Part shown: piece after piece, positions 17,725 through 25,834 of the stretch | How positions within the stretch are numbered: position 1 is the stretch's first letter | Layout of the letters: each line of letters begins with the position of its first letter | Source: Escherichia virus TH21 | Direction: 5' to 3' (one strand) | DNA: 52,087 nt | Sequence record: MT446395.1 | Made by a program: the position numbers and the translations under genes | The notes under the pieces: model-generated | What the model was told of the DNA's origin: nothing | The model's database searches: none | Seen by the model: only the letters and a program-made list of their open reading frames with translations

Positions 17725-19308
17725 TTACCCCAGCAGTCGCGGATTAATGTAAATTTTATCACCAATCAGGCACGTATAGTTTTTCTCATCCAGCATAGGG
17801 ATCAGATGGTCTTTGATGCGAGTCATTACACCAGCCTGGCCCTCGAATGGCTTAACCTTACGCGCCGCTTCATATAGGGATCGGACACCTACAACGCCTT
17901 TCCCGTTCTTGCCTTGCTTGATCAGGATGTCAATAAGCTTGTTCATCTCCGCATGGTCGCCAGCGTGACCAGCAGCGTTTGCAGATGACAGATAAGTTTT
18001 ACTCAGTTCCTGGAACATAATTACAGCTTCTTGCATTGTATCAAGCTCAATCTCTCTGGACTTCTGCGGACTTCCGCCATTGGGATTGAACCAGTTACGC
18101 ACAGTGTGAAGAACCGCCGCGATCCTGATGGCCTGCTTATCAAACTTACCAAGCGCGCCGCGAAGCATTGTGTGTGAATACTTCCCGCCGTCCGCAAGGT
18201 GAGGTTCCATATCCTGACGCGCACGGTTGAGATATTTCATCGCCGACGTGCTCACTGTCAGGTTGACTTCGTGTTCGCTCATGATCTCATGGACCAGACG
18301 GAAGTAGTCCGCCTTGAGTCCGCCATCAATCGGCTCATATGTTGATTCGCCTTTTTCGTCAACGAATACACGCTCGCCAAGGAATGACTTCTCACGCACA
18401 AGCAAGAAACGTTCTGACACACCGATACCACGCGCACCAGCATTCATGATCGCGTTGATTGTTTCATCCTGTGCAATTACAGAGATGCAACCCATAGCGA
18501 TAAAGCTCATGTTATTGTCTGCGTTCGCACGCGCGATAGATACGTTACCAGCATCCCATGCCTTAAGCACAAGTTCGCTGTTCGTTTTCTTTGAGCCGTC
18601 ACCATAGGTCATGCCTAACAGTGAGTTTACGCTCGTTGCTTCATCCGAGATCACAGAGAAGTTCCCCTGGCGGTTGTTGATTCGCGCCAGACCTTCCGGC
18701 GTGGTGTCGGATACGGGGAATACGATGTCACAAAGGCGTTCCAGTTTTTCTTCCAGTTCTTCTTTTTCCTCAAACAGTGCCGCCATGTCGGACGGTGATT
18801 TTTCCTGCTTCATCTCCTTGGATAGAGCAGATAGTTTAGCCATAATCTTCTTGCGGTCGCGCTTTCGGATCTCGTTGAGTCGTTCAGTCTCTGCGATCAT
18901 CGGGGCCAGCGAAAGTGAGTTAATGGCTGATTTACCTGTCGATGGTGGCTGACTGGTTACGACGTAAAGCGCGGTCGGCTGTTGTGTTCCGTGATACTCA
19001 ACCGTAAAGCGGCCCAGCATGGCGGCTGATATGCATCCGAGGAAATGCATGTAAGCGGACGACTCGGGGAACTGAACTGAACGAGCGGCATTGCTTGACA
19101 GCTTACCAACGACATCATAATCGTTACCAAGTGAGATAACCGGATATTTGTCACCGCCCGAGTCGATTTCTGTTGGTGCTTTCCAGAACGACTGGCTTTG
19201 CCTGTACCCGTTCGCATTGATGGCAACGCGCAGGGGCGGCAGGTTATCGGCGGCGGCCACAGCCATAACCTGATCGATAGACAATTTATCTTCGTTAAAA
19301 TCAAACAT
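17725..19308 (-). CDS. P-loop NTPase, possibly VirE/DUF3987-like primase-associated helicase
   Basis: 527 aa from ATG 19308 (AAGGAG 7 nt upstream); Walker A-like SQPPSTGKS; N- and C-terminal segments recur in 24573..25127. Confidence 0.45.
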   Translation of the reverse strand: MFDFNEDKLSIDQVMAVAAADNLPPLRVAINANGYRQSQSFWKAPTEIDSGGDKYPVISLGNDYDVVGKLSSNAARSVQFPESSAYMHFLGCISAAMLGRFTVEYHGTQQPTALYVVTSQPPSTGKSAINSLSLAPMIAETERLNEIRKRDRKKIMAKLSALSKEMKQEKSPSDMAALFEEKEELEEKLERLCDIVFPVSDTTPEGLARINNRQGNFSVISDEATSVNSLLGMTYGDGSKKTNSELVLKAWDAGNVSIARANADNNMSFIAMGCISVIAQDETINAIMNAGARGIGVSERFLLVREKSFLGERVFVDEKGESTYEPIDGGLKADYFRLVHEIMSEHEVNLTVSTSAMKYLNRARQDMEPHLADGGKYSHTMLRGALGKFDKQAIRIAAVLHTVRNWFNPNGGSPQKSREIELDTMQEAVIMFQELSKTYLSSANAAGHAGDHAEMNKLIDILIKQGKNGKGVVGVRSLYEAARKVKPFEGQAGVMTRIKDHLIPMLDEKNYTCLIGDKIYINPRLLG

Positions 19309-19378
19309 TAAAAAACTCCTTAGTTGGTGCGCTAATGTTAACGCACCTATGGTAAAACCGCTTGCCAAAAAATGCTAC

Positions 19379-23404: not shown

Positions 23405-23468
23405 GATGATTTCCTTTAGTGCGTGTCGTTTCGATTAGGTAATAATAGCGAATCACTCCTGATCGGTC

Positions 23469-23485
23469 ATTAGCAAAAAGTGCTA
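23469..23485 (-). promoter_or_regulatory. cassette palindrome TAGCACTTTTTGCTAAT at the head of the minus-strand operon
   Basis: followed by TATTAT and the conserved leader. Confidence 0.45.
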
Positions 23486-23499
23486 TTCGTTCGATTTAT

Positions 23500-23625
23500 G
23501 GATTGTTGCAGCTATTGCAATGATTCACTTCACTATTGCACATATAGCAATATTGCATCGTTTGCAATGATGTTTTCGATTGTTGCGAATTGAGCAATGA
23601 TTCATTGATGGGTGGAATGATGGGG
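23500..23625. repeat. iteron-like cluster of TTGCAATGAT / TTGCA repeats
   Basis: TTGCAATGAT at 23515 and 23562, GCAATGAT at 23594, GGAATGATG at 23614; inverted repeat TATTGC-N7-GCAATA near 23535. Confidence 0.45.
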
Positions 23626-23681: not shown

Positions 23682-23830
23682 TACACGTAACCGAAGTAGC
23701 ACGGTGTAAGCCACACCCATATCGTTACGCGGGTTACGCGCAGCTACGCCCTGACTTACGCCATAAGTCCTTAATATATATATATATCTTCTTTCTATTA
23801 TTATTATTATTATTAATATTATTGTATGTA
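23682..23830. repeat. AT-rich repeat segment paralogous to 2629..2790, with (AT)7 and (TTA)6 microsatellites
   Basis: tacacgtaaccgaagtagcacggtgta vs tacatgtaaccgatgtaactcggtgta; cgcgcagYtacgcc shared; microsatellites in both copies. Confidence 0.55.
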
Positions 23831-24033: not shown

Positions 24034-24062
24034 TTGACTACATGTGTAAGTCGGGATACGAT
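24034..24062 (+). promoter_or_regulatory. sigma70-type promoter (TTGACT-N17-TACGAT) for the plus-strand accessory operon
   Basis: hexamers read directly; ATG at 24094 after GAGAGGAG. Confidence 0.5.
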
Positions 24063-24093: not shown

Positions 24094-24573
24094 ATGAAAG
24101 AGCAAGTAACACTAGGGCAGGTGATTCGTGAGATGGCAAAGGCAGCACTCAAGTCCGAGGATAAGCAATTCAGCGTGCCACTAAGTAAGATTGCAAGCAT
24201 TATCGGAGTCGATGGCGATAACATTCCAAAGCTAAAGAGTTCATACATCTACAACACGACAGCCCGCATGACTGAGCTAAGGGATGTTGGATTGAAAGCG
24301 ACTCACTCCTATGACGACGACGAGGGTGATAGCGAGTTCGGTGAATCAACCCTGGCAGGTGATAGAAGACTGGTTATCAAGCTGGTACCTGGCACGGCGA
24401 ACATTGGAATCAGAAAGAAGACCAATAACGCGATAAAGGAAGAGGCAATCACCGAGTTCAAGGCGAGAATTTCAAAGGTTATGCCAGACATTTCAGAGTA
24501 TGAAGGAGAGGCGCTTGCCGCTGCAATGAAGGCAATTAAAGATTACCGCTCAATCATTGAGGAGATTAAATAA
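24094..24573 (+). CDS. hypothetical protein, first gene of plus-strand accessory operon
   Basis: 159 aa; strong RBS. Confidence 0.5.
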   Translation: MKEQVTLGQVIREMAKAALKSEDKQFSVPLSKIASIIGVDGDNIPKLKSSYIYNTTARMTELRDVGLKATHSYDDDEGDSEFGESTLAGDRRLVIKLVPGTANIGIRKKTNNAIKEEAITEFKARISKVMPDISEYEGEALAAAMKAIKDYRSIIEEIK

Positions 24574-25127
24574 TGTTTGATTTCAACGAAGATAAGTTAA
24601 CTGATGACCAAGTGATGGAAGTCGCCAGGCAAGATAACCTTCTGCCATTGCGCGTGGCAATCAACGCAAACGGATACCGTCAAGCTTTCAAGTTCTGGTG
24701 CAGCGCAGAAGAGATGCTGCGCGTCAAACTGAGCCACAAACAAAGCGTCGTGGTTAAAAGGATTAGCCACCAGGGCCGCAACGGAAAGGGAGTGGTTGGC
24801 ATTAGATCTCTATACGAGGCAATCCGAAAGGTCCAGCCATTCGTCGGGCGCGAAGGGATTATGCATGACCTGACAAATAACATCATCCCAGCACTACAGG
24901 AGGCAGGAATTGTTTGCCTCATTGGCGATAAGATTTATGTGCATCCGGCCCTGGTGGGAATGGATGAACGAGACGTGTACACCTGGTGCAGTCAGCACCG
25001 ATCCGACGCGCGACGTTCTCACTACGTGCCACCGCAGACAACAATCCATGGCTATGATGCCGATGAGGTGGAGAAGGCCATCCAGTTCTACCGGAAAGCG
25101 AAATCTCTCCTGAACGGTGAATGCTAA
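24573..25127 (+). CDS. domain-deleted paralogue of the 17725..19308 P-loop protein (N- and C-terminal segments only)
   Basis: 184 aa; MFDFNEDKL..PLRVAINANGYRQ and GKGVVG.RSLYEA..K..PF...CLIGDKIY match both ends of the 527-aa protein; no Walker A. Confidence 0.5.
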   Translation: MFDFNEDKLTDDQVMEVARQDNLLPLRVAINANGYRQAFKFWCSAEEMLRVKLSHKQSVVVKRISHQGRNGKGVVGIRSLYEAIRKVQPFVGREGIMHDLTNNIIPALQEAGIVCLIGDKIYVHPALVGMDERDVYTWCSQHRSDARRSHYVPPQTTIHGYDADEVEKAIQFYRKAKSLLNGEC

Positions 25128-25356: not shown

Positions 25357-25412
25357 CAACAAATCGGGTAGTCAGCTATGATTACCCTATCAACAACGAA
25401 GAGGAAATGATC

Positions 25413-25619
25413 ATGGAAACTGTACGTATTGACGATGTTCACTTTGACCAAGCTGAGGTCAGTGTCACGATGAGATCAGTTCGCGGCAATGTTGTCAACC
25501 TGGACTTCGATCCTGACGGTTACGCAGATTGCCAAACACTGATGCATTACTCACCTGACGCGGCTCGCAAATTAGCGGCGGCACTTATTCTGGCAGCGGA
25601 AGAGGCAGAAAAGCAATGA
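25413..25619 (+). CDS. small acidic protein, paralogue family member 1
   Basis: 68 aa; shares V.I.D..AEV....Y.PD.ARKLAAAL..AAEEAE pattern with 25616, 26394 and (more distantly) 26621. Confidence 0.5.
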   Translation: METVRIDDVHFDQAEVSVTMRSVRGNVVNLDFDPDGYADCQTLMHYSPDAARKLAAALILAAEEAEKQ

Positions 25620-25834
25620 TTGATATTCGAGTTAATTCAGCCTGGGATCAGGAGACGGAAATCTCAGTAATCAATGTTCCGTTTGGAAAGATGCGTAAGC
25701 GCGTGCACCTGGACCTTTCGCCGGATTCGCAAGTGGATGGCGCTGGCATGACATACACCGCAGAGCAGGCGCGCGAACTTGCTGCGGCGCTAATTAAGGC
25801 AGCTGAGGAAGTGGAGGCGGAAGTCGATGAGTAA
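25616..25834 (+). CDS. small acidic protein, paralogue family member 2
   Basis: 72 aa; ATGA overlap with member 1. Confidence 0.5.
   Translation: MIDIRVNSAWDQETEISVINVPFGKMRKRVHLDLSPDSQVDGAGMTYTAEQARELAAALIKAAEEVEAEVDE

Follow-up and report, generated by a model that had tools for sequence, protein, structure and literature searches.

Introduction

Papillomaviruses and HSV-1 make short forms of their replication initiators (E8^E2 and E2-TR in the former, OBPC, the C-terminal part of UL9, in the latter) that keep the binding domain and repress replication. All of them are N-terminal truncations produced from the same gene as the full-length protein, via internal promoters or splicing. In phage T7, two primase-helicase forms of 56 and 63 kDa, gp4A and gp4B, both carry the motor and are co-assembled in active hexamers. 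Replication of the T1-like phages is, to our knowledge, poorly understood, and neither a loader nor an origin nor a regulator is known to us for the MCM-like DUF3987 helicase of these phages.

According to Kazlauskas et al. (2016, PMC4889955), DUF3987 proteins are replicative SF6 helicases that are related to MCM and carry a winged HTH at the C-terminus. A PriCT-DUF3987 protein, AgaPH, has been demonstrated to be a 5'-3' helicase (PMC11724360). The C-terminal winged helices of MCM2-7 serve for docking to ORC/Cdc6 and Cdt1, and they are able to autoinhibit loading; termini of this type are thus known modules of interaction and regulation (PMC5538431).

Here, we describe a locus in Escherichia virus TH21 (MT446395.1). 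The window, by which we mean the whole stretch of 52,087 nucleotides analysed, is a complete T1-like (Drexlerviridae) genome with Escherichia virus TH30 and vB_EcoM_50EP (filed under Nouzillyvirus) as nearest records. Among its other products are the recombination proteins RecE and Erf, a DnaG-type primase, an SF2 helicase and methyltransferases, and it carries genes for lysis and for the tail. A previous sequence-only reading had drawn attention to a 184-aa product (the short protein) as a paralogue of a 527-aa P-loop protein. Compared with DUF3987/SF6 helicases, the short protein has the first 48 residues and the C-terminal winged helix in common with the T1-type member; the AAA+ core and the lid are absent from the short protein, and its 55-aa tail is absent from the helicase. 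We propose that it resembles E8^E2 and OBPC as a motor- or effector-less version from the same virus, able to compete for the same sites. Unlike them, it has a gene of its own, which goes back to an ancient duplication, has lost an internal part but neither end, and evolves independently. The T7 pair likewise represents two related helicase forms in one infection, but the short protein lacks the motor. Furthermore, the MCM2-7 regulators Cdt1 and geminin are unrelated to the helicase, whereas the candidate regulator described here is a copy of the helicase's own termini. The searchable literature yielded neither a description of the short paralogue nor one of a relation between its family phrog_7327 and the helicase termini.

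Results

The short gene matches both ends of a replicative helicase

The 527-aa parent has an MCM-like AAA+ fold, with a Pfam DUF3987 match at residues 81-430 and invariant Walker A (G124-K125-S126) and Walker B (D221-E222) residues. Its designation as a helicase agrees with the published family assignment (PMC4889955) and with the activity demonstrated for AgaPH (PMC11724360). The length of 527 aa is counted from the ATG used by the helicase homologues. The frame stays open for 20 codons further upstream, to a TTG at 19368 (17725-19368, minus strand), and this extension is probably not translated, since both the homologues and the paralogue start at the MFDF methionine (19308).

BLASTP of both products returned two matching blocks only, one at each end, both ungapped and neither of low complexity. 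At the N-terminus, 34 of 48 residues are identical (71%, E 3e-20, residues 1-48 of both proteins), and at the C-terminus 38 of 63 (60%, E 4e-25, residues 67-129 of the short protein on 465-527 of the helicase). Using hhalign, the first block was recovered as residues 1-51 of both proteins (probability 99.2%) and the second one was widened to residues 55-129 on helicase 453-527 (99.5%). The PHROG profiles of the two families cross-match at the same two ends. These alignments bear out the claim that the 184-aa product is a paralogue keeping only both ends of the larger protein, and the matching segments are not low-complexity.

The centre of the parent, which had been described as missing together with Walker A, is indeed gone: helicase residues ~49-452 (~404 residues), holding DUF3987 and the GKS motif, correspond to ~6 residues in the short protein. 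Neither Walker A (GKS/T) nor Walker B (DE) is present in the short protein, the aligned blocks skipping residues 49-452, and a Pfam search with it matched neither DUF3987 nor any other family. As in E8^E2 and OBPC, the binding module of the parent is kept and the motor module is absent. Because this defining ATPase feature is absent, the short protein should not be called a helicase.

Behind the winged helix, the short protein carries an additional tail (residues 130-184). The earlier description of an unrelated tail of 60 residues holds with respect to its being unrelated (E 0.047 against the helicase profile) but not with respect to length, which is 55 aa. A derivation of the tail from the lid helices of the helicase was considered and rejected, as the best hhalign match (residues 401-441, probability 1%) is not significant. 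This alignment to helicase 401-441 (17986-18108, minus strand) places the invariant W138 opposite the near-invariant W405 and the tail helix opposite the lid helix, probably by chance.

At the DNA level, the two copies are 66% (N-terminal block) and 56% (C-terminal block) identical and synonymous sites are saturated, indicating that the duplication is old and that neither a recent repeat nor an assembly artefact accounts for the copies. We also rejected recent gene conversion between them within the window (longest identical run 11 nt, dS saturated). The two genes lie on opposite strands and flank one divergent intergenic region (Table 1), which agrees with the placement of the short paralogue in the operon opposite to the helicase.

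Table 1. Positions in the window of the short gene, its parent and the neighbouring elements.
Feature	Position	Strand	Basis
Short paralogue gene, 184 aa + stop, phrog_7327	24573..25127	+	ORF, profile match
N-terminal helical mini-domain, codons 1-48 (= helicase 1-48)	24573..24716	+	BLASTP, hhalign, AF2
Junction, codons 49-54, in place of ~404 helicase residues	24717..24734	+	gap between aligned blocks
Winged-helix domain, codons 55-129 (= helicase 453-527)	24735..24959	+	
Family-specific tail, codons 130-184, with C-terminal amphipathic helix (residues 163-180)	24960..25124	+	
Shine-Dalgarno GAGGAG, 8 nt before the short-gene ATG	24559..24564	+	read from sequence
Upstream gene, DUF7174 / phrog_4841, 159 aa, first of the rightward operon	24094..24573	+	Pfam PF23796, E 9e-50
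Candidate sigma-70-like promoter TTGACT-17-TACGAT, before the DUF7174/short cassette	24034..24062	+	consensus match only
Parent gene, 527-aa DUF3987, MCM-like (SF6) replicative helicase	17725..19308	-	
Helicase codons 1-48, mini-domain kept in the short paralogue	19165..19308	-	
Helicase codons 49-452, linker + AAA+ core + lid, not in the short paralogue	17953..19164	-	
Walker A GKS of the helicase	18931-18939	-	
Helicase codons 453-527, C-terminal winged helix kept in the short paralogue	17728..17952	-	
Cluster of TTGCAAT/GCAATGAT(T/G) repeats, 155 nt, divergent intergenic region	23466-23620		
(TA)n/(TTA)n AT-rich tract, after the repeat cluster	23773-23825		

The short gene is part of a conserved cassette and under purifying selection

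The short protein belongs to phrog_7327, a family without annotated function (E 3e-92, residues 1-183 on profile positions 1-179 of 179). We collected 329 homologues at E <= 0.001, mostly 174-192 aa long. An exhaustive HMM search of 1.84 billion representatives yielded just 55 clusters, all of them members of the short family, fragments or T1-type helicases; the short family is thus of narrow range, though well populated. Even distant members with ~30% identity show the same N-terminal module, winged helix and amphipathic tail. In unsaturated pairs, dN/dS is 0.17-0.43 for the N-terminal plus winged-helix (N+WH) module and ~0.3-0.5 for the tail. The short gene is a real gene under purifying selection.

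The ATG of the short gene overlaps the stop codon of the DUF7174 gene (TAATG), which has a strong Shine-Dalgarno sequence of its own. DUF7174 was found in 133 phage records and is located immediately 5' of the short gene wherever coordinates were compared. Together, the two genes are a conserved cassette heading the rightward operon of small early-region genes. The short gene is the second gene of this first rightward operon and lies among hypervariable small genes without assigned function; it is probably expressed early. Downstream of it, two genes of 70 and 72 aa (25407-25619 and 25616-25834, plus strand), both phrog_13316, are tandem duplicates with a 4-nt overlap and a common C-terminal helix '..A(A/E)(R/Q)(K/E)LAAALI.AAEE.E'.

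A compact helical and winged-helix unit is predicted

The AlphaFold model of the short protein has a pLDDT of 85, with values >90 for residues 10-140. It starts with three to four short helices (11-49), and the AF2 helices 11-20, 25-33 and 36-41 (pLDDT ~94) are mirrored by helices 10-20, 24-32 and 35-40 in the helicase model. The following elements (H55-70, E74-76, H77-84, H96-110, E114-117, E120-123) have the H-E-H-H-E-E topology of a MarR or Orc1/Cdc6-type winged helix. In the C-terminal part, residues 146-153 are disordered and residues 163-180 form a helix. The structure predictions of both products thus agree with the alignments, the secondary-structure elements of the short protein mirroring both helicase termini. 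With high confidence, the short protein is predicted to be a single compact helical and winged-helix unit, from which we infer that residues 1-48 and 453-527 are packed together in the helicase itself. On an MCM-type motor, as in Mcm3 and Mcm6, the winged helix is a docking or autoinhibitory element (PMC5538431); the short protein has a predicted winged helix of its own.

The same residue is conserved in both families at 16 positions, including N33-G34-Y35, W42, K72-G73, R85 and P89-F90. G, P, W, F, C and L account for most of the residues that both families conserve, and these may simply be needed for the fold. Within the short family, 18 columns are invariant and a tail motif is conserved, with W138, Y161, E165, Y173 and R174 as invariant tail residues. 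Among the best structural matches, many are winged helices that bind proteins (ORC2, RPA32C, Scc1, Stn1, cullin). Searched by sequence against PDB chains, neither the short-family profile nor DUF7174 nor the helicase gave a usable match.

A winged helix could also bind DNA. According to this explanation, the winged helix, with or without the HTH-like N-terminal helices, would recognise phage DNA and make the short protein a regulator of early promoters or an origin marker for the helicase. The winged-helix segment is basic (pI 9.9), as would suit such a role, but the putative recognition helix 96-110 (IMHDLTNNIIPALQEAG) is acidic and hydrophobic and varies within the short family, and the protein-binding character of many structural matches points in the other direction.

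The divergent intergenic region contains a conserved repeat cluster

The genomic surroundings bear on the same question. Nearly all related phage loci, including those with differing flanks, share the repeat cluster of the divergent intergenic region with 82-96% conservation, and the cluster is followed by the AT-rich tract. We regard it as a candidate for an origin, a pac site or a regulatory site. Over the whole genome, the TTGCAATGAT motif shows no enrichment (8 matches vs 6.5 expected), and what stands out is the local cluster alone. Several public genome records are linearised within the repeat element, and a 57-aa ORF with a GTG start on the minus strand overlaps it. A stretch of ~60 nt at 23426-23487 (..TCGATTAGGTAATAATAGCGAATCACTCC..) is found at two or three other places in related genomes with 72-100% identity; examples are the copies at L004 7365-7386, at L013 5508-5593 and 1462-1526, and the two in L025 (handles of related loci). 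This stretch may be a repeated early promoter or regulatory box.

The position of the short gene near the repeat element and the AT-rich tract, as second gene of the first rightward operon, would suit a protein that binds to this region. However, the short proteins are just 43-50% identical between phages with a common intergenic element. In addition, the gene is disrupted in viable phages (see below), and the short protein therefore cannot be the sole initiator. Taking both sides together, we consider DNA binding as the function of the short protein rather unlikely.

The short gene points to a single old origin and evolves independently of the helicase

A tblastn match was obtained in 514 phage records, most of them via the helicase C-terminus alone, and a full-length short copy was present in 106. 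The proposed check of related phages thus places the short paralogue in a subset of the T1-like phages, with ~106-133 of the 514 records carrying the gene. Carriers are E. coli/Shigella phages of the Rogue1, Jk06, AHP42, DTL, IME253, SU57, ESCO41 and TH30 kinds, and the helicase is found without the short gene in tonn, tunzivis and Klebsiella T1-likes.

To place the short proteins among the helicases, we took the concatenated N+WH module of 53 short proteins and 60 helicases and calculated a neighbour-joining tree. The short proteins are monophyletic in 96 of 100 bootstraps and form a clade with close helicases in 86 of 100; these helicases come from the same phage subgroup that carries the short proteins. 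Distant helicases, down to 24% module identity, possess both termini. Because the short proteins nest among the helicases and the distant helicases have both termini, the helicase architecture is ancestral and the short form was derived once. For the same reasons, the opposite polarity, with the short form as ancestor and the helicase arising by insertion, was rejected. The sequence comparison suggests that an internal deletion gave rise to the short gene a single time, long ago, in the ancestor of one T1-like subgroup. In a metagenomic protein (P0284, 222 aa), an unrelated N-terminal P-loop segment (..VGRHGVGKTS..) precedes the lid and winged-helix end of a T1-type helicase; this protein represents either a further natural rearrangement involving the helicase C-terminus or a chimera from assembly.

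Across the phages that carry the short gene, identity to the window copy is 90-100% for the helicase and 43-87% for the short protein. The dN/dS values are 0.01-0.10 for the helicase (module and core) vs 0.17-0.43 for the short module, and non-synonymous change of the short module is ~5-10 times faster than that of the parent module. Between the window and phage 50EP, dS is 0.07-0.16 for the helicase and 1.9 for the short gene, and between the window and the locus L002 it is 1.5-1.7 for the helicase and 0.32 for the short gene. As these two comparisons run in opposite ways, the short gene and the helicase must have been subject to mosaic exchange. DUF7174 is strongly mosaic, too: the window copy shares 76-81% identity with those of Sf12, CEB_EC3a, BEK2 and TR3, the short paralogues of these phages share just 43-50% with that of the window, and in 50EP, which has a helicase identical to that of the window, DUF7174 is merely 32% identical. 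A recombination breakpoint must often fall between these two coupled genes.

In-frame stop codons interrupt the short gene in three phage lineages. In DTL (L008 8671-9192), a TAG replaces Glu after '..FKTYEG', and the frame beyond the stop is still conserved. In the 44,219-bp vB_EcoS group (L013 10001-10525), a TGA replaces Gly after '..FKVYE', one codon from the DTL site; here, the frame beyond the stop is decaying and the invariant R174 has become W. In a CEB_EC3a-like genome (L011 ~893-1411), a stop occurs at ~codon 38. These stops could represent recurrent tail truncation, or read-through or suppressor-dependent alleles. The Sf12-like phages have a short protein with a different tail, and the tail is replaced or truncated in some lineages; the constant core of the short gene is the N+WH module. 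Owing to the nonsense codons in three lineages, we regard the short gene as accessory and dispensable for plaques on laboratory hosts.

The nonsense codons and the decaying tail are what one would expect if the short gene were a passenger without function, left over from a rearranged helicase copy. This explanation is most improbable, as the frame is intact across hundreds of sequence clusters with identities down to ~30%, dN/dS is far below 1, the tail motif, the Shine-Dalgarno sequence and the coupling to the upstream gene are all kept, and a compact fold is confidently predicted.

The same pattern of rapid change could reflect a target in the host. In this case, an abundant early copy of the module would titrate a host factor or a helicase-sensing defence, or capture a replication protein, and thereby act as a decoy, an anti-defence factor or a takeover device. 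Such a role would fit the location among hypervariable small early genes, the higher omega (~0.2-0.4 vs 0.01-0.1 for the parent), the mosaic exchange apart from the helicase and even from DUF7174, and the patchy occurrence with recurrent nonsense alleles, which is typical for accessory genes under host-dependent selection. All of this is circumstantial, however. PADLOC returned no match for the short protein or DUF7174 at E values up to 1, we found no such link in the searchable literature, and a signature of positive selection is absent, with module omega <1 in all informative pairs. The helicase trigger of retron-Eco11 was rejected as a precedent, since it concerns the SF2 helicases UvsW and D10 and not DUF3987. 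A host-directed function of the short protein is therefore doubtful.

Discussion

A proposed competitor for the ligand of the helicase termini

Based on analogy with the systems described above, we propose that the short protein binds the ligand of the helicase termini and modulates recruitment or activation of the helicase, as a competitor from the opposite, probably early, operon. We assign this reading a probability of roughly 0.4. The helicase gene was duplicated once, long ago, and codons ~49-452 were lost. The product is a free-standing terminal module, in which the three-helix mini-domain is joined almost directly to the winged helix and an amphipathic helix is added, and it can neither bind ATP nor unwind DNA. 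It would be made from the first rightward operon with its translation coupled to that of DUF7174; the helicase gene lies at the far end of the leftward operon. The short protein may then occupy the ligand of the helicase termini, be it a phage or host replication partner, the helicase ring or DNA, and occupation of this ligand would tune the timing or the place of helicase recruitment or activation. It would thus act as an accessory, dispensable modulator rather than as a core replication factor.

A dominant-negative regulator or partner-binding decoy of the helicase, as suggested by the sequence-only reading, is plausible. A decoy role fits because the short protein is predicted to be a compact unit, the winged helices of MCM proteins are known docking modules, expression is probably early and the gene is dispensable. 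On the other hand, the decoupled histories of short gene and helicase and the ~5-10-fold faster change of the short module argue against a tightly co-adapted partner that poisons helicase subunits. If the short module imitated a highly conserved surface, one would expect it to have remained closer to the helicase. Furthermore, to compete as a monomer with a hexamer and its six docking modules, the short protein would need to be abundant.

A modified version of the competitor would accommodate rapid diversification. Here, the short protein would be a decoy made first together with DUF7174, which absorbs a host sensor or inhibitor of the helicase termini or captures a needed host factor. We regard this version as unlikely; if true, the phage would mimic a replication protein of its own in order to counter defence or to take over the host.

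Close to the decoy lies the variant of a self-derived, Cdt1-like loader for a bacterial-virus MCM: the short protein would bind the ATPase ring in trans, via the surfaces to which the termini bind in cis, and aid ring opening or hexamer assembly at the origin. The MCM-like nature of the parent is in line with this idea, as MCM loading needs contacts between winged helices (PMC5538431). However, the short gene is dispensable and missing from most T1-like phages that have the same helicase, and the fold matches are generic for winged helices, which makes a loader or assembly factor quite improbable. We prefer the competitor for the ligand of the helicase termini. The DNA-binding, host-directed and loader explanations likewise assume this module and this class of ligand, and they differ in the target.

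Implications for annotation and for the replication of T1-like phages

In the RefSeq record of Jk06, 'DNA helicase' is listed twice in the region of the short gene, and one of these labels is possibly the short gene. The family phrog_7327, and possibly the Jk06 label, could be re-annotated as "helicase N/C-terminal module paralogue, no ATPase". The conserved copy consisting of the termini only marks residues 1-48 and 453-527 of the helicase as one separable functional module, and the short protein is a ready probe, as pull-down bait or competitor, for the partners of this terminal module. The short gene is also a clean case of a protein born by internal deletion with both parental ends kept, which then evolved faster and moved independently. 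If the decoy or the loader proves true, the logic of E8^E2, OBPC or Cdt1 would be extended to bacteriophages.
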